Below, one piece after another: positions 1,084 through 45,030 of a stretch of 64,000 bases of DNA. The notes beneath the pieces were generated by a model, which ran no database searches, was not told the origin of the DNA, and worked only from the letters and a program-made list of their open reading frames with translations. Source of the stretch: a phage; the sequence record PZ386970.1; one strand, written 5' to 3'. The first letter of the stretch is position 1. Each line of letters starts with the position of its first letter. A program made the translations under genes and the position numbers.

Positions 1084-1485
1084 TTATAGATTCGGTTTAT
1101 ATGATTTAAATGTTTCGAATTCGCCTTTATTCATAAGAGCTTTGAATTCGTCAGGACGCATAGCTTTGTCGTCGATAATCCAATCATATACTGGTTTATG
1201 TGTTAGCAAATTATGGTACTTCAAACCAATGTTTTCCAAGTTCTGAATCAGACTTGGGAGAATGTCAATTGCTATACGACCAGGACCTACTGACTTCATA
1301 CCACGAGCAGTGTAAAGCGTTATGGTATGCCCTGCATCATACAGGGCATTAATGGCAGACACCATTTCGACGTCTGGTTTGAAGTTCACGTAATCACGAT
1401 TGTTATTCCACTCTGTTATACAATCATCGACATCAAAACAAAGATTAAGCATGTTTTCTACACGGTGCATTAGATTCGTTCCCAT
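1084..1485 (-). CDS. HAD-superfamily small phosphatase (KdsC-like sugar-phosphate phosphatase candidate)
   Basis: 133 aa; N-terminal DVDDCIT matches HAD motif I (DxD nucleophile); overlaps the upstream gene stop, suggesting co-translation. Confidence 0.6.
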   Translation of the reverse strand: MGTNLMHRVENMLNLCFDVDDCITEWNNNRDYVNFKPDVEMVSAINALYDAGHTITLYTARGMKSVGPGRIAIDILPSLIQNLENIGLKYHNLLTHKPVYDWIIDDKAMRPDEFKALMNKGEFETFKSYKPNL

Positions 1486-3155
1486 TGATGAGTGATATCG
1501 CCACCGATTGGACGATAGGAAACACCAGTTTCTTTATCAGTTAGTACCCATTTACCAGGATTTTTTGTAATCAGAGTAGCCGTTACAGGTTCTGCTACGT
1601 CATAACTAATAGAGCCGTCCTGAAGTACACGGCCCATGTTACGTAATTGCTTAGTCAGAAGTTCCATGCCTTTATAATATGCGGCTACCGCTTTAAGTGG
1701 ATTATTCTTGAAATAACCACCCAATGCAATCCAGATAATTGCCACCGCCAAATGATGATACTCGTTAAACGAACTCATCTTTCCATATTTGTAAACTAAT
1801 GGATTGATGTTAATAGTCACATTACAAGTTGTTTCATCAATAGTAAACTGACCCCAGGTCGGATTAGCATTGAATTCATCATAACCTGAAACAGCATAAA
1901 GCACTTTAGCTTCATCATATAATTTTGGCCCGTAAATCTTGGTTTCACCAAAATATCCACGAGGGTCGATAAACTTGACTTCGCCGTTATCAGTAATCAT
2001 AGTATTACTGAAGTTCGGGTCACCGTGAATAACAGAGTACTGTCCCTGAGAACGGTTATGATAACGAATAAGATGTTCTAAAGCTTGTTTCAACATTGGC
2101 TTCAGACGTCCAATCTTAGTGTAGTTCACGTGTGTGATTTTACCAAATGAATCAATCAATGGCTGAATGCTTTCACAACGATCAATAACTTTCGTATAGA
2201 ACTCTTTAGTGAAATCACGGCGAACAGTTTCAGGACTTACAAAATAAGTGTCTGTGCTGAATTTCAGTGCATCTAAAATTGCATCAACAATTTGTGGACG
2301 AGCAAGACTTGATTTGGATTTAATATATTCAAATGCCGGCTTACCTTTAATGCGTTCCATTTCAAAGTTATTTTCATTAACAGAAACTAACTGAGGAACT
2401 GAATCTGATTTCACTTTCAAATACCACGAAATCTCATCTTTCTGAAGAGCTCGACCCTGTTCGGTTAATGCGAATTTAGTTACAGTTTCTTCACCAATTT
2501 CAACTGCATTAAAACTACGATTAAGTTCACGAACTTCATGAGCTTTTTCAAGTTTAGGCATATCACCTAAATCAATTATATTCATAAGCTCTGATTTATT
2601 GAATGCGCCGCTGTAAAGGAATTCTACGAAATCACGTCCTTTGCAGTATTCATGAATTTCCTCATCGGTAGAACCCATATAGAATTCCCAGTCTTTGAAT
2701 TGATAAATTCCTACAACATTACCGCCTGTTGCACCTACATTAGTGATATTTTCACCGTCGAAATTATATCGACATTCATCACCCTTAACATAGATTGCGT
2801 TAACATTCCAAGACCATGAACCAAAATCAGGAATAATATCGCACCAGTTAACAATTACGTTATGGCCGTCTAAATCTTTGTGTAATTTAGCAAGAGCATA
2901 AGCAGAACCATACGCTTCATCAACTGTACGAATAGTCACATTGAACCCTTCTTGCTCACAATAAGCTCGAACAGTTTCAGCAAATTTTGAATGAACTACT
3001 ACAATAATTTCATCTGCGCCAAGGTCAGAATAAATTGTATATAAATTGCTCAGAATAGTGTCTTGTTTATAGTTAACAAGCACCTTAGGAATATGATGCG
3101 TTATTGGATACAAACGAGTTGCCAGTCCGGCACCAAGAATAACAGCTTTTTTCAT
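1470..3155 (-). CDS. Bifunctional sugar-1-phosphate nucleotidyltransferase (N-term) / sugar kinase of the APH-choline kinase fold (C-term)
   Basis: 561 aa; N-terminus AVILGAGLATRLYP matches the GxGTRL nucleotidyltransferase signature; C-terminal HGDPNFSNTMITDNGEVKFIDPRG matches the kinase catalytic loop of APH/choline-kinase-like phosphotransferases. Confidence 0.7.
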   Translation of the reverse strand: MKKAVILGAGLATRLYPITHHIPKVLVNYKQDTILSNLYTIYSDLGADEIIVVVHSKFAETVRAYCEQEGFNVTIRTVDEAYGSAYALAKLHKDLDGHNVIVNWCDIIPDFGSWSWNVNAIYVKGDECRYNFDGENITNVGATGGNVVGIYQFKDWEFYMGSTDEEIHEYCKGRDFVEFLYSGAFNKSELMNIIDLGDMPKLEKAHEVRELNRSFNAVEIGEETVTKFALTEQGRALQKDEISWYLKVKSDSVPQLVSVNENNFEMERIKGKPAFEYIKSKSSLARPQIVDAILDALKFSTDTYFVSPETVRRDFTKEFYTKVIDRCESIQPLIDSFGKITHVNYTKIGRLKPMLKQALEHLIRYHNRSQGQYSVIHGDPNFSNTMITDNGEVKFIDPRGYFGETKIYGPKLYDEAKVLYAVSGYDEFNANPTWGQFTIDETTCNVTININPLVYKYGKMSSFNEYHHLAVAIIWIALGGYFKNNPLKAVAAYYKGMELLTKQLRNMGRVLQDGSISYDVAEPVTATLITKNPGKWVLTDKETGVSYRPIGGDITHQWERI

Positions 3156-3196
3156 GTTGTGGTCCTCATTGGTAAGTAGGTGTATTGTACACTATT

Positions 3197-3340
3197 CTAG
3201 TTAAAGCATTCATACTTTGCCTGTAGACCAATCATAATCCATCCAATTACAAGTGTTGGAATCATTACTGGAGCCGTTAAGCTCCAGTAGATAGTCATGA
3301 CAAGCATCAATAGTAAAAGTCCTATTGTTATTGCTTTCAT
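3197..3340 (-). CDS. Small hydrophobic membrane peptide (47 aa), at the T4 imm-like position next to gene 43
   Basis: Manual translation MKAITIGLLLLMLVMTIYWSLTAPVMIPTLVIGWIMIGLQAKYECFN; ATG overlaps the SIS gene stop (TAATG); below the ORF-track cutoff. Confidence 0.35.
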   Translation of the reverse strand: MKAITIGLLLLMLVMTIYWSLTAPVMIPTLVIGWIMIGLQAKYECFN

Positions 3341-3972
3341 TATTCGCCTCGTAACATGGCACCTAGTGCACCGCCAGGGTGGAACTTAAGGAAGTCATTA
3401 GAGGTAAATCCACGTTCAGAAGAAAGGTTGATAGCAAACGTATCGATAAGCGCTAACAACAATGTAGTGGACATTGTCGGAGCTAAAGAGTTCTCATCGA
3501 CCTCTACCGCGATGCCTGTACAGAAAGAGTAATCAAAAAGGGCTTCATTTTCTTGCGGAATGTCAGGGTTACAATGTAACAGAATCTGTTTAACCTGAGG
3601 ACGAATCATACGAAGATGTTTAGCAACACCTATCATTTCTTCGGTCTTACCAGAACGACTAATATGAATCAACACATCATTAGGCGCAATGAATCCTGCA
3701 TCACCGTGAGAATAATGCCCGGTGTTCAAGTACATACTAGGAATACCTAGTGAAGCAAATGTCTCAGAAGCTTTAGTTGCAATATTAGCATTCTTACCAA
3801 CACCTGTAATAATTACTCGGCTTTCATAATTACTAAGTCCTGGGCGTCGAAGAGTTTCTAGAATAGCATTATAACGAGCAGGGTTTTGACTAATTACTTT
3901 GGCCATAGTAGCCAAAGAAGAAGCTTGTTTTATGATTGCGTCAATAGCGATAGTGATTGGTGTAGTTTTCAT
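3340..3972 (-). CDS. SIS-domain sugar-phosphate isomerase (KdsD/GutQ/GmhA-like; arabinose-5-phosphate isomerase candidate)
   Basis: 210 aa; VIITGVGKNANIA and HISRSGKTEE resemble the SIS phosphosugar-binding motifs (SxSGxTxE). Confidence 0.7.
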   Translation of the reverse strand: MKTTPITIAIDAIIKQASSLATMAKVISQNPARYNAILETLRRPGLSNYESRVIITGVGKNANIATKASETFASLGIPSMYLNTGHYSHGDAGFIAPNDVLIHISRSGKTEEMIGVAKHLRMIRPQVKQILLHCNPDIPQENEALFDYSFCTGIAVEVDENSLAPTMSTTLLLALIDTFAINLSSERGFTSNDFLKFHPGGALGAMLRGE

Positions 3973-12112: not shown

Positions 12113-12347
12113 CCTCGATGCAGGCTTCAGCCATTTTCAGAAGAGAACCAGGAGTATCACCGTCCATTACATTGAAACTGAATTCCACAGCCCAGTCTGT
12201 ACAGACACGAACTGCTTTAACTTCACCGTCTTCAACTCGTAATGGTTCAATCCAGTATTTCACTGTGTTCTCGAATCCATCATCATCTTTAACGTCTATT
12301 TCAACTTCAAGCCCGAGCCCAGCATTGTTAAATTCATCTAAAGTCAT
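12087..12347 (-). CDS. Hypothetical acidic protein (46.2 position)
   Basis: 86 aa ORF between gp47 and gp46. Confidence 0.5.
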   Translation of the reverse strand: MTLDEFNNAGLGLEVEIDVKDDDGFENTVKYWIEPLRVEDGEVKAVRVCTDWAVEFSFNVMDGDTPGSLLKMAEACIEDAYNDYED

Positions 12348-13363
12348 TGTGTTGCCTCAATATAAAGTTCGTTGGAATATTTGACCAGCGCTTCTCTGTC
12401 TTCGTCTGAGATATCTGGAATCGCATCAATATATTCTTTAATGATATCTTGAAGTGATTTAATCTCGATTTCCTGGTCGTCATCGGATTCAACACTGTTA
12501 TCAACTTTAGAAACCATACGAAGAGAGTGAACTACTTTTTCAAGTTCAGATTCAAACTTAGTCAATTCTGAATCAATTTCTGATACTATAACACGTACGG
12601 CTAGATTAGTATAATCAGAATAATTGATTTTGCCTTTAAACGGATAAGTGATTCGTCGATGCCATGTTGTTTCATTAGGAATAAATTCCATACGTTCAAC
12701 ATCAGTGTCAAATACCCAGAATCCGCGCGGGTCATTCTCATCGCCTGCAGTAAGGGTCCATGGTGTCCCAATATATTTGACGTTAGCAGCTTCAGAGATT
12801 GTGTGGAAGTGGCCAGACCAGACTTGTTTATAGGTCTTTAAGAAATCAGGTTCAAGCCCATGAGACTTCATTCCTTTATAGAAATAAAAGCCATTCAGTT
12901 CCCAGTGTCCAACACAATACGCAGCAGAAGAAGTCTTGATGTGCTCTAAGATTTCACCTGTATTTTCTTCACACATCCATGGAATTAAATCAATCAGACA
13001 CCCATCGAAATCAACAGTCGTAGGTTTATCATAAATAACAACATTTTTACGATGAGACAAAAGCTCTTGGGTTGTATTAGGGTATAAAGTTGTCTTATAA
13101 AAAAGGTCGTGGTTACCCAAAATAGTGTGAACGGTTATTCCAGCGTTTTCAGCCATATCAAATAATTCACGAGTAAACTCCATACAACGTTGTGTTGTGT
13201 GAGCTCGTACATCAAATACGTCCCCGTACTGTATCCATGTTGTTATTCCATTTTTAACAGAATAATCCACCATTTGTTTGAATCCGTGTCGTTGGATGTT
13301 TTGAATCCAAACATCATCCTTTTTTACACCTAAGTGCAAATCGCCCACGTTAAGAATTTTCAT
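12344..13363 (-). CDS. 47: Recombination/repair nuclease subunit gp47 (Mre11/SbcD-like metallophosphatase)
   Basis: Start at MKILNVGDLHLG gives 339 aa (T4 gp47 length); phosphoesterase motifs GDLHLG, GDVFD, GNHD. Confidence 0.95.
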   Translation of the reverse strand: MKILNVGDLHLGVKKDDVWIQNIQRHGFKQMVDYSVKNGITTWIQYGDVFDVRAHTTQRCMEFTRELFDMAENAGITVHTILGNHDLFYKTTLYPNTTQELLSHRKNVVIYDKPTTVDFDGCLIDLIPWMCEENTGEILEHIKTSSAAYCVGHWELNGFYFYKGMKSHGLEPDFLKTYKQVWSGHFHTISEAANVKYIGTPWTLTAGDENDPRGFWVFDTDVERMEFIPNETTWHRRITYPFKGKINYSDYTNLAVRVIVSEIDSELTKFESELEKVVHSLRMVSKVDNSVESDDDQEIEIKSLQDIIKEYIDAIPDISDEDREALVKYSNELYIEATQ

Positions 13364-14177
13364 ATTGCACCTTAAATTTACCATAAATTATACTGTGATA
13401 ACTTAAATCAGGAAAACCTTCTGCGACGGCTAAAGGTCTAAACTTCTTAGGACTTATTCTACCACATTTTACCCAAAGAGTATATAGTGCTTCATAATAT
13501 TCAAATAATGGTCCTTTACGAGCTTCAGAAACAGTTTTACGCACTTTGTCCTTTATTGACGGGTCTAAATTTCTAAGGGTTTCACTAATTTTGTTTCGAT
13601 GGGTTTCATTAATAAGATTTCCTTTAACCCAGCCTTCAGGTTCAGTCCCTGGGACAAACATTTTCTTTTCTTTGCCATTATTATACCATTTGCGACCTTT
13701 ATTGTGACTAGAGGCTTTATATTCAGGAGAACGACCTTTTACATTACCTTCTGGTATATAAGGTAGAAAACTTTGTTCTAACGTTTCAGGGTTGTATGAG
13801 TGTATATGGCCTTTACCATTATGTGAGCCGTACAATGGGTGCTCTTCTTTTGGAAGTGATAATCCGAAAAATCCTTTAGGAGCAGCAATTGCTTTATTCA
13901 TATACATCGGGTTATTGGCAGCATCCACCTTTAGTTGGAGTAAACGTTCAGCTTTTGTCGCTTCTTCTCTTGTGGCGTGTTCACTTACAATACATGAATC
14001 AAAAAGATGTGGATTCATTTTTAGTTCAGAATTGTAAATTTCCTTATACGCTTTTGATAAAACCGTTCCGTGATATCCAGCTTTATGTTTTGCAATATTT
14101 GTGGAACCTATATAAAACGGTGGAAGTTTGTCACCATCATAAATCGTAAAATATACTATGTACATGTTATTCTCCAT
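13350..14177 (-). CDS. Free-standing GIY-YIG homing endonuclease (seg-like) with NUMOD3-type DNA-binding repeats
   Basis: 275 aa; N-terminal YIVYFTIYDG...FYIGST (GIY-YIG), downstream Glu-rich catalytic region, repeated basic HxxK/NKGRKWYNNGKEKK segments; occupies the T4 alpha-gt position. Confidence 0.8.
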   Translation of the reverse strand: MENNMYIVYFTIYDGDKLPPFYIGSTNIAKHKAGYHGTVLSKAYKEIYNSELKMNPHLFDSCIVSEHATREEATKAERLLQLKVDAANNPMYMNKAIAAPKGFFGLSLPKEEHPLYGSHNGKGHIHSYNPETLEQSFLPYIPEGNVKGRSPEYKASSHNKGRKWYNNGKEKKMFVPGTEPEGWVKGNLINETHRNKISETLRNLDPSIKDKVRKTVSEARKGPLFEYYEALYTLWVKCGRISPKKFRPLAVAEGFPDLSYHSIIYGKFKVQYENS

Positions 14178-14467
14178 TTTGTATAGAAATTACTATATCA
14201 TAGTTTATACTGTTTGTAAACCCTAGAAACGAGAAAAGGAACTCCGAAGAGTTCCTATCCACATAGTACACCGTACAGAGGCTCATTTGAACTTTTAAAT
14301 CGAATGGGCTTGTATGTAATAGTTCCTTCGGCAGAAGCTTTATCATAAGACTCTTTAAAACGTCTCATTCTTTCTGCTTTGCCTTTACGGATTTTATCGA
14401 AATTTTCAGAAGTCGGGATGTTCGTCATGCATAAGCACCTCTCAGAAAATGCCTAAATCGATTTCTC

Positions 14468-14689
14468 TCATCGTTTCCACCATTTCTTAACTTGAAATGA
14501 ATCAACCCACACGAGTTGTTTTGGGTCTGCCTTTACAATAGGCAGACAAATTTCTGTAATAGAACCGTCGTGATATTCCTTTTCAGAAATTTTAACACAA
14601 AGAGGACCTCCCAATTTAAGGGTGAACCCTGCGTTCAGCTTCAGACGTTTAAACTTTGTTTGAACTAGCGCCATTAATGATGTCCTCAA
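14468..14689 (-). CDS. Hypothetical protein
   Basis: 73 aa ORF. Confidence 0.45.
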   Translation of the reverse strand: MRTSLMALVQTKFKRLKLNAGFTLKLGGPLCVKISEKEYHDGSITEICLPIVKADPKQLVWVDSFQVKKWWKR

Positions 14690-14972
14690 TAGCCTGACGA
14701 GTAGTAACCCACTGGATTTTAATTAACTTGTCATTATATGGTTGTCGTAGAATATCCCGAGATTTCTTAATAGCATATTCGTAAGCTTCGAAGTTGTTTT
14801 GAATTGCTGCTTCTTGAGCATGAGCATAAAGACGGTTTAGCTCAAAACGATTCTTTTTAAGAATCTTTTCGGATTTTTTACGTGCTTCAGCTTCATTTTT
14901 CTTTTGTATTTCTTGTAGCATTTTGGCTACTGCATCTTCTGCTTCTTTATTTTCAATAATCTCGGTAGTCAT
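14649..14972 (-). CDS. Hypothetical protein (coiled-coil, K/E-rich)
   Basis: 107 aa ORF. Confidence 0.5.
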   Translation of the reverse strand: MTTEIIENKEAEDAVAKMLQEIQKKNEAEARKKSEKILKKNRFELNRLYAHAQEAAIQNNFEAYEYAIKKSRDILRQPYNDKLIKIQWVTTRQAIEDIINGASSNKV

Positions 14973-14973
14973 A

Positions 14974-15189
14974 TTATCTCATTAAATTAAAATAAAAACG
15001 TCCGTCCTCTTCAATACAGAACTCGTACTCAACTGGAGTCCCATTTATCGAAAATGACACGTCATGTGGGTTCAAAGGGTCGATGTCAAAATTAATTTTA
15101 AATTCTCTACCCAACAGTTTTACCAAATAAGGGATTGCTTCGTCAAAAGGTTCTTCTAAGTAGTTAGAGATGTCAATTGTTATCCTCAT
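14974..15189 (-). CDS. Hypothetical protein (start placed at internal Met to avoid overlap with gene 55)
   Basis: ORF-track frame 14974..15267; internal start [10 protein letters not shown] chosen by non-overlap; uncertain. Confidence 0.4.
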
Positions 15190-15730
15190 ATAAAAAATCC
15201 AAACTAGGCGAATCGCTAACAACTTCCTTCTTTTCAGCCCCAGGAGCTTTATAAGCTGATTCTTCATAATGCGTCATTTTATCGTAGATGTCTTGAATAA
15301 ACGTTTCATCTACCAACGCTACCATATCATCGTCATGACTGTCGTAGACATTATGAACGAAGTAACTATATTTCTTTGCAACTTCCTTACGTTCTTTTTT
15401 GATACGTTGGACAAAAGCATTAAAACAAGCTCGAGTTATGTATGCATGTGGGTTATTGTACTTAGTTTCGTCGAAATTATGAAGTCCCTTAATAGAGGCT
15501 TCAATCCCATCTGCAATCATCTCCTGCTTCCAAGACTGGGTATATCCTGAAAAGTTGAAACGTTTGGACAGGCCTTCGGCGATAAGCATAATTGCTAAAC
15601 CGATGGTATCATTCTGACGAATAATTTTGTTTGGGTCTTTATTATTTAAGAGCTCCTTTTTCCACTCGATTATAGCGGCGAGAAGCTCTTTATTATTCAC
15701 ATAGTTATTTTTAGGTTTTTGTTCAGTCAT
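15173..15730 (-). CDS. 55: Late-transcription sigma factor gp55
   Basis: 185 aa; near-identical to recalled T4 gp55 (…[15 protein letters not shown]…[38 protein letters not shown]…). Confidence 0.95.
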
Positions 15731-15802
15731 AAGTACCTCTTAGCTCAATTCATAGGTCTATTATATCATAATATTTAGAGACCTATCTTAAAGCACGAGA
15801 TA

Positions 15803-44489: not shown

Positions 44490-45030
44490 GGATTAAATTG
44501 TTAGTGAAATTAGGACTAACAACCATGGTTTCATAAAGCGCATCAATAGCACTTAAAGCATCAACTCTTTTAAGCAAAGGCTTGCCTTCATACATAGTTT
44601 CAGAATCAACGATTAAAGTGAAGTAGTATTTTTTATTATCGACTAGAACTTCTGTATCGATATAAAACATATTAGACCTCAGAAGTTTATCTCTAAAGCC
44701 TACATAATCATCTGAACGTTCACTGATATATTCCCATTCGGTGTTTAAACAACAAACAGACCATGTAGGAGCAACGAAATCAGTGAATCTAATATCATGG
44801 TCTGCAACTAGTTTAGCAATAGCTCCGATATCATGAATCATAATACCTGGGGCTAATAAAGATTTTCTACTATGGCTAGCCGTTTTCTCAGTAGTCTCAT
44901 AAGAAGACGACCAGTACCATTTACGTCCAGTTGCAACATATCGTAATGAATCAACTAAAGACGTAGGTGGATTTACCTTATCTCGGAACTCTTCGAACAT
45001 TGAGTCAATATCATTATTTTGGTTTCGCAT
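44428..45030 (-). CDS. Hypothetical protein (start at MRNQNNDID with AAGGAG RBS)
   Basis: ORF-track frame 44428..45051 trimmed to the RBS-supported ATG immediately after a terminator hairpin. Confidence 0.55.
   Translation of the reverse strand: MRNQNNDIDSMFEEFRDKVNPPTSLVDSLRYVATGRKWYWSSSYETTEKTASHSRKSLLAPGIMIHDIGAIAKLVADHDIRFTDFVAPTWSVCCLNTEWEYISERSDDYVGFRDKLLRSNMFYIDTEVLVDNKKYYFTLIVDSETMYEGKPLLKRVDALSAIDALYETMVVSPNFTNNLILEQFIMECREYVKANPIHAN

Follow-up and report, generated by a model that had tools for sequence, protein, structure and literature searches.

In phage T4 the genes a-gt.2, mobB, a-gt, 47.1 and 47 follow one another in this order; in the phage DNA described here the interval between the a-gt.2 homologue and gene 47 is filled by one gene of another kind. 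The locus raises the question of what this gene encodes and by which route it came to lie against gene 47. A reading made from the sequence alone had seen in it a free-standing GIY-YIG/NUMOD3 homing endonuclease that occupies the place of the alpha-glucosyltransferase gene, in keeping with a different DNA modification chemistry. The window, to which all positions refer, is the whole stretch of DNA analysed (64,000 nucleotides of record PZ386970.1); its source is a Mosigvirus (RB69-like phage), with Escherichia phage LF82-4 as best match (98.5% identity). The gene probably encodes a homing endonuclease of the Seg type (GIY-YIG), directed at the gene 47 region of phages that lack it, and probably arrived together with a foreign 5' third of gene 47.

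The open reading frame list gives an uninterrupted frame of 275 codons on the minus strand (13350-14177), located between the a-gt.2 homologue and gene 47 and thus, as first proposed, between genes 47 and 55; its upstream neighbours are homologues of a-gt.2, a-gt.3, a-gt.4, a-gt.5 and gene 55, in T4 order (Table 1). The length of 275 aa given in the sequence-only reading holds for the frame; the protein most likely has 271 aa and starts at the second ATG (14165), because this ATG is preceded by GGAG (14175-14172, 6 nt upstream), all homologues begin at the equivalent methionine, and the orthologue in the LF82-4 record is annotated from the equivalent ATG (271 aa). No ribosome-binding site precedes the first ATG (14177). 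The overlap with gene 47 had been assigned to the start of the endonuclease gene and is formed by its 3' end: the stop codon (13350-13352) falls within gene 47, which starts with the ATG at 13363, and 14 nt are shared. The frame has 115 homologues in the database (E<=1e-3) and a PHROG match at 6e-75 (phrog_10820, described as 'HNH endonuclease'); together with the confident fold described below, these show that it is no chance open reading frame.

Table 1 Features of the gene 47 locus and of the arabinose module in the window. Strand and basis are given where available; aa, amino acids; nt, nucleotides.
Feature	Position	Strand	Basis or remark
561-aa NTP-transferase protein	1470-3155		
210-aa SIS-domain protein	3340-3972		annotated arabinose-5-phosphate isomerase in related records
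Gene 47 (Mre11/SbcD-like nuclease subunit)	12344..13363	-	76% aa identity to T4 gp47; Pfam Metallophos
Putatively foreign (co-converted) gene 47 5' segment, nt 1-379	12985..13363	-	~62% identity to RB69/Bas46; 70-76% to endonuclease-linked alleles
Endonuclease CDS	13350..14165	-	271 aa + stop; longest ORF reaches ATG 14177
C-terminal helical region (aa 187-271), ending in a three-helix HTH-like bundle	13353..13607	-	presumed sequence-specific DNA-binding domain
Insert of 867 bp relative to endonuclease-free Mosigviruses (45 bp in Bas46)	13367..14233	.	BLAST + MAFFT vs Bas46
Central region, two beta-hairpin repeats (IHSYN...PEGNVKG, KWYNNG...PEGWVKG)	13620..13817	-	presumed DNA-contact linker module
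N-terminal GIY-YIG catalytic domain (aa 1 to ~95)	13881..14165	-	YIVYFTIY, FYIGS; invariant Y9, G11, Y18, G20, Y31, E73, N90
Shine-Dalgarno GGAG for ATG 14165	14172..14175	-	sequence reading
Sigma-70 (early-type) promoter-like site TTTACA-17-TATAGT with TG, inside insert	14192..14220	-	consensus scan 10/12 + extended -10
a-gt.2 terminator hairpin	14237..14256	-	conserved in relatives with and without endonuclease
a-gt.2 homologue (DUF5486), upstream neighbour	14255..14428	-	tblastn vs T4 a-gt.2 74% identity; Pfam DUF5486

Classification of the protein rests on a fold search and on hhalign, because searches of Pfam and NCBIfam, and of PDB sequences with a family profile, returned no GIY-YIG, NUMOD3 or HNH match. 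The Pfam search returned zero matches at E<=1 (PF01541, PF07460 and HNH included), and PF01541 was found in 0 of the 115 homologues; the NCBIfam search gave nothing meaningful, its RelB match (E 0.006) being dismissed at 16.6 bits against a cut-off of 50; the family profile found no GIY-YIG chain among PDB sequences, and matches to ribosomal protein eL29 (E ~0.5) were set aside as lysine-rich noise. That PF01541 is not matched reflects the limited sensitivity of the model and is compatible with the fold. In an AlphaFold2 model built on 47 homologues (mean pLDDT 87.7; >93 for residues 1-90, with >95 in the N-terminal domain), the N-terminal domain is predicted to have the order beta-beta-alpha-alpha-beta-alpha, with a three-stranded sheet and flanking helices, which is the GIY-YIG fold. 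The top three Foldseek matches in the PDB are I-TevI (probability 0.90-0.97, with weak E values of 0.075-0.26); in BFVD there are 48 matches at E<=1e-3, named as GIY-YIG, Seg-like or group I intron endonucleases, and none of the top 50 is named HNH. With hhalign the protein was matched to T4 SegE (96.4%, E 1.2e-9, 154 columns) and T4 SegG (95.5%, E 1.4e-8, 34% identity over 93 columns; BLASTP, 30% identity over aa 1-110), and to I-TevI at 22% only, on a short NUMOD3-like stretch. The name GIY-YIG endonuclease is therefore right by fold and Seg homology, though not by any Pfam match.

Eleven residues are invariant across the 47 homologues (Y9, G11, P15, Y18, G20, Y31, E47, L54, F55, E73, N90). 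The 'GIY' and 'YIG' tyrosine motifs correspond to YIVYFTIY (aa 2-9) and FYIGS (aa 17-21), with Y5 nearly invariant in the same 47 sequences. GIY-YIG enzymes have a catalytic glutamate and a structural asparagine (E75 and N90 in I-TevI) and a conserved arginine in the first helix (R27 in I-TevI). By position and modelled fold, E73 and N90 would be the counterparts of the catalytic glutamate and the asparagine; they align with the ERKYQ and NPDYFN segments of SegG and with the equivalent positions of SegE. No invariant arginine like R27 occurs in the 47 homologues, in which position 26 is mostly K/R.

Behind the nuclease domain, the strands of the central region are modelled at residues 121-124, 131-134, 159-162 and 167-170, and the hairpin repeat aligns with the SegE motif FWVNNG...PDGFIKGR. 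The NUMOD3 part of the first description found no support: PF07460 is confined to relatives at <=40% full-length identity (higher across the shared N-terminal domain alone), which have a different central region. The helix ETHRNKISETL resembles the NUMOD3 motif by eye only. Judged jointly with the origin argued for below, the product of the frame is probably a Seg-type homing endonuclease like those of T4, free-standing and composed of a GIY-YIG nuclease domain, a linker of beta-hairpins and an HTH at the C-terminus; it is predicted to act as a nuclease.

Comparison with near relatives supports the earlier description of a mobile endonuclease at a plastic locus, since the free-standing Seg-type gene is present or absent among near-identical genomes. 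LF82-4 is the only one of 729 phage records to match 12300-15800 with >=80% query coverage; its orthologue XUQ12143.1 has 98.5% aa identity (DNA divergence ~1.5%), with the frame intact in both isolates. About 147 other matching records (95-99% identity) are without roughly 820 bp at the locus, and the endonuclease has no counterpart in RB69, Bas46 and ~140 further Mosigvirus records. In five AV1xx Mosigviruses this site is occupied by an allele with 61% identity; carriage is rare (~6 of ~150 Mosigvirus records). Gene 47 and a-gt.2 are separated by 69 bp in RB69 and by 45 bp in Bas46, and homology of the window with endonuclease-free genomes restarts in the T-tract of the a-gt.2 terminator at 14234. 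The endonuclease gene probably still moves.

The predicted expression signals around gene 47 also differ from those of Bas46. Its early-type promoter-like site has an analogue in AV109 (GTTTAC-18-TATAAT, equivalent place), and the ribosome-binding region of gene 47 (AAGGTG) sits within the endonuclease gene. Bas46 has a MotA-box-type arrangement before gene 47 (TGCTTTA-11-TAGAAT) that is missing in the window, where a regex search of 13300-14300 found no MotA-type middle or late promoters (TATAAATA). All these promoter-like sites, in the insert, AV109 and Bas46, are consensus matches only.

Evidence for the route of arrival lies in gene 47 itself, which is split. Compared with RB69/Bas46 (Mosigvirus, no endonuclease), identity is 61-62% over gene 47 nt 1-360 and 98% over nt 380-1000; compared with AV109 (Mosigvirus, endonuclease), it is 76% and 98%. 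The corresponding values for the same two segments are 72% and 68% for L011 and 70% and 66% for L010, both of which carry the endonuclease, and 56-66% and 66-77% for other endonuclease-free alleles. The change is abrupt and falls at nt 379 of gene 47 (window position 12985), right before a near-universal block that encodes IPWMCEEN, and LF82-4 has the same chimeric gene. AV109 gene 47 is itself divided in comparison with Bas46 (66% identity in the 5' segment, 98% in the 3' segment). The phages whose 5' segments are most alike are also those with the closest endonuclease proteins after the LF82-4-type orthologues (AV109, L011 and L010; 62%, 56% and 68% identity). Since gene 47 5' segments group by endonuclease carriage across genera, repeated joint transfer is indicated. 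The split would be the textbook signature of co-conversion, as expected from double-strand-break repair, here read from comparison of genomes. The donor of the 5' segment is absent from the phage collection searched, in which the nearest allele is 77% identical (AV109). The replaced segment encodes the Mre11-type motifs I-III. In the cluster formed by the window phage, AV109, L010 and L011, RKAITH (gene 47 nt ~150-180) is replaced by RAHTTQ; this exchange was considered as a marker of the cleavage site and rejected, as the endonuclease carriers teqhad, L012, L037 and L040 keep RKAITH.

The same partnership is found well beyond the genus. Homologues with 68%, 56%, 54% and 41% identity, on four unrelated metagenomic contigs, adjoin a Metallophos gene 47 on its upstream side and run into it; those of Dhakavirus IME08, L037, L040 and teqhad also adjoin gene 47. 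The endonuclease lineage keeps to gene 47 rather than to alpha-gt. A paralogous clade with NUMOD3 lies upstream of gene 39, which fits an exchange of the DNA-binding module upon change of target. Literature searches found no paper on an endonuclease at gene 47.

A mechanism may be proposed after the model of SegF, SegG and SegE. SegE, SegF and SegG cut a neighbouring gene, and co-conversion accompanies their mobility, as shown experimentally (PMC2988022). In a mixed infection the enzyme would likewise cut the endonuclease-free allele of a co-infecting phage, most likely in the first ~400 nt of gene 47; we give about an even chance to a target somewhere between nt 1 and ~400. The break would be resected and then repaired from the endonuclease-carrying genome, so that the endonuclease gene is copied along with the adjacent 5' part of gene 47, presumably in a cleavage-resistant form. 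In the present phage, an unsampled T4-like donor would have supplied a cassette of 867 bp that includes a promoter-like site of its own, and also the sequence that replaced gene 47 nt 1-379, the conversion tract ending where near-universal homology starts (IPWMCEEN block).

The alternative that survives best, which we regard as rather unlikely, takes the protein for a former homing endonuclease, now immobile, that is kept for the gene 47 ribosome-binding site and a possible promoter or as a DNA-binding regulator, with the chimera as an old relic or a product of ordinary recombination. The arrangement of the locus lends itself to such a reading: the gene 47 start and AAGGTG lie within the endonuclease gene, the MotA-type middle promoter of Bas46 is gone, promoter-like sites occur in and before the endonuclease gene, the gene is rare in Mosigvirus, and embedded signals of this kind favour retention of such genes (review, PMC2988022). 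The breakpoint is found among endonuclease-free phages as well (L021 vs L026, 99% in the 5' segment and 72% in the 3' segment; L026 vs L031, 74% and 96%), and these breaks may be due either to earlier homing followed by loss of the endonuclease or to crossover where homology permits at nt ~380. Because the nt ~360-380 breakpoint occurs in these endonuclease-free phages, the chimera of the window could come from ordinary recombination at a homology boundary. Against this stand the intact frame in two isolates 1.5% apart in DNA, the invariance of the catalytic Glu, the Asn and both Tyr motifs across the family, and the grouping of gene 47 5' segments by endonuclease carriage across genera.

Homing with co-conversion remains the preferred reading, and a wider version of it can be offered tentatively, as less likely to hold. 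The endonuclease and the first ~380 nt of gene 47 may form a two-part cassette that passes between T4-like genera with different hypermodifications; the enzyme family would cut hypermodified DNA whatever the sugar, the gene 47 segment would be the cleavage-resistant allele, and the catalytic core of gp47 would have been remodelled repeatedly, with the nt ~380 breakpoint left behind even after loss of the endonuclease. The hypermodifications concerned are glucosyl-hmC in Tequatrovirus and arabinosyl-hmC in Mosigvirus. If this were true, the catalytic core of an essential recombination nuclease would be subject to repeated remodelling.

That the endonuclease displaced the alpha-glucosyltransferase gene, its presence being tied to an altered DNA modification chemistry, has very little probability left. 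It is suggested by the T4 gene order, in which mobB, a-gt and 47.1 stand where the endonuclease alone stands here, and by the glucosyltransferases themselves: as first noted, none is seen, tblastn with T4 alpha-gt and beta-gt having found no credible homologue in the 64-kb window (best E 0.018 over 69 aa; E 4.8). The match at E 0.018 (44764-44943) was set down to chance; it falls in an unrelated 207-aa open reading frame, too short for a GT-B enzyme. Synteny contradicts the displacement. In RB69 and Bas46 the short interval before gene 47 has neither alpha-gt nor endonuclease; of 27 IMG/VR loci with upstream sequence, 8 have alpha-gt in this interval, 2 have the endonuclease and 17 have neither; and homologues down to 41% identity keep their place upstream of gene 47. 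Alpha-gt and endonuclease can coexist, because Tequatrovirus teqhad carries both in a row (a-gt, 47.1, endonuclease homologue with 61% identity, gene 47). RB69 has arabinosyl-hmC DNA and lacks homologues of a-gt, b-gt and ba-gt; described for it are a candidate arabinosyltransferase of a separate kind and a sugar-nucleotide module (PMC6024577). Arabinosyl-hmC and the candidate transferase explain the absence of alpha-gt in RB69-like phages. Part of the arabinose module is present in the window (~1470-3972). The different modification chemistry is thus real and known in the genus, and its tie to the endonuclease falls away: the missing glucosyltransferase is a genus-wide trait that is independent of the endonuclease.

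The weakest alternative, an HNH-family homing endonuclease, takes its support from product names (LF82-4 GenBank record, PHROG 10820 and many RefSeq records) and from a C-terminal 87 aa that resembles the C-terminus of the T4 HNH protein MobD (27.6% identity), and is refuted by fold and profile results, for Pfam gives no HNH match, the MobD likeness is limited to the DNA-binding tail and excludes the N-terminal HNH region, and the N-terminal domain is akin to GIY-YIG proteins in structure and to Seg proteins in sequence profile.

The database label can accordingly be corrected: proteins of this family, listed as 'HNH endonuclease' or 'hypothetical', escape the Pfam and NCBIfam models and belong to the Seg-type GIY-YIG enzymes, and a copy with 98.5% identity has already been released with a mistaken name. 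A previously uncharacterised Seg-like lineage is defined that is faithful to gene 47 in several T4-like genera, and the locus offers a clean natural case in which homing-associated co-conversion appears to have produced a chimeric Mre11-like gp47. Two matters that had been joined are separated, the absence of alpha-gt belonging to the known arabinosyl-hmC biology of RB69-like phages rather than following from the presence of the endonuclease. In practical terms the gain is modest, and nothing here should surprise a T4 specialist.

Among known systems, the nearest is the LF82-4 protein itself (XUQ12143.1, 'HNH endonuclease'), which is encoded at the same site, next to a gene 47 that is chimeric in the same way; it belongs to another isolate and bears a wrong product name. 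I-TevI (intron-encoded, in T4 td) is the best solved-structure match for the catalytic domain and shares the 'beads on a string' layout (nuclease, then linker, then C-terminal HTH); the two are not significantly similar in sequence (nothing was recovered in the search of PDB sequences), and the window protein differs in being free-standing, in showing no zinc finger and in having no invariant residue that corresponds to R27. The best profile match is to T4 SegE, whose gene lies between inh and uvsW and which cuts uvsW; this match covers the YIG...GY(L/H)GS core and the WxNNG...P(D/E)G(F/W)(I/V)KG hairpin motif. SegE has a different locus and target and is without the C-terminal three-helix domain of the window protein. 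T4 SegG, between genes 32 and 59, differs in its locus (gene 32, not gene 47), its length (210 aa vs 271 aa) and its DNA-binding part, and T4 segG has no promoter of its own (PMC2988022), whereas an early-type promoter-like site precedes the window gene. SegG nevertheless has a homologous N-terminal catalytic domain, including the ER..Q and NP.YFN segments; like the window protein it is encoded by a free-standing gene just upstream of an essential DNA-metabolism gene with entangled expression signals, and it is associated with co-conversion of the neighbouring gene (PMC2988022).

In the window, two genes, one encoding a protein whose N-terminal domain is an NTP-transferase and the other a SIS-domain protein labeled arabinose-5-phosphate isomerase or phosphoheptose isomerase in related Mosigvirus records, are the sugar-nucleotide module that has been proposed for arabinosyl-hmC synthesis in RB69 (PMC6024577). 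The pair is direct evidence, inside the window, for a non-glucose DNA chemistry.

Coordinates of the sugar-nucleotide genes and promoter-like sites. Positions refer to the window unless another genome is named.
Feature	Position	Strand	Remark
NTP-transferase-domain protein, 561 aa	1470-3155	(-)	
SIS-domain protein, 210 aa	3340-3972	(-)	
TGCTTTA-11-TAGAAT region, Bas46 (endonuclease-free Mosigvirus)	2568-2612		counterpart in window: 14192-14233
Second promoter-like site, GTCACA-17-TATAAT with TG	13680-13708	(-)	consensus match only

Endonuclease-free Mosigviruses carry a MotA-box-type middle-promoter arrangement (TGCTTTA-11-TAGAAT) in the interval from the a-gt.2 terminator to gene 47; the window has an early-type TTTACA-17-TATAGT site in its place. 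A T4 review describes the endonuclease-specific promoters of that phage as middle or late, never early (PMC2988022). The second promoter-like site is located within the endonuclease coding region, ~320 nt upstream of gene 47, and, judged by its motifs, could be a gene 47 promoter embedded in the endonuclease gene.

The position at nt ~360–380 of gp47 (window ~12985) was also observed as a mosaic breakpoint in T4-like phages without the endonuclease. Among endonuclease-free loci, the pair L021/L026 shares 99% identity over the 5′ segment of gene 47 but 72% over the 3′ segment; for the pair L026/L031 the corresponding values are 74% and 96%. For L040, listed earlier as an endonuclease carrier, the 5′ segment is nearest to RB69 (72%), and the 3′ segment matches Dhakavirus-like loci at 95% identity.

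In AV109-type Mosigviruses the endonuclease allele is a different one, as are the upstream terminator and promoter (AV109, 2189-2510); an annotated a-gt.2 is apparently absent from these phages. Their insertion seems to be an independent event that reached further upstream.

IME08 (NC_014260, 2501-3100) contains an endonuclease homologue that is not annotated, with 68.5% identity across aa 6–203. The annotated gp47 CDS of this phage (3018-4121) is 84 nt too long and reaches into the homologue region, which looks like an annotation error; alternatively, IME08 may hold a truncated endonuclease copy.

A Seg-like paralogue with NUMOD3 (40% identity) was found in IME281 (MH791409, 3001-3678), directly upstream of, and overlapping, topoisomerase gene 39; in T4 this position is taken by the defective mobA.
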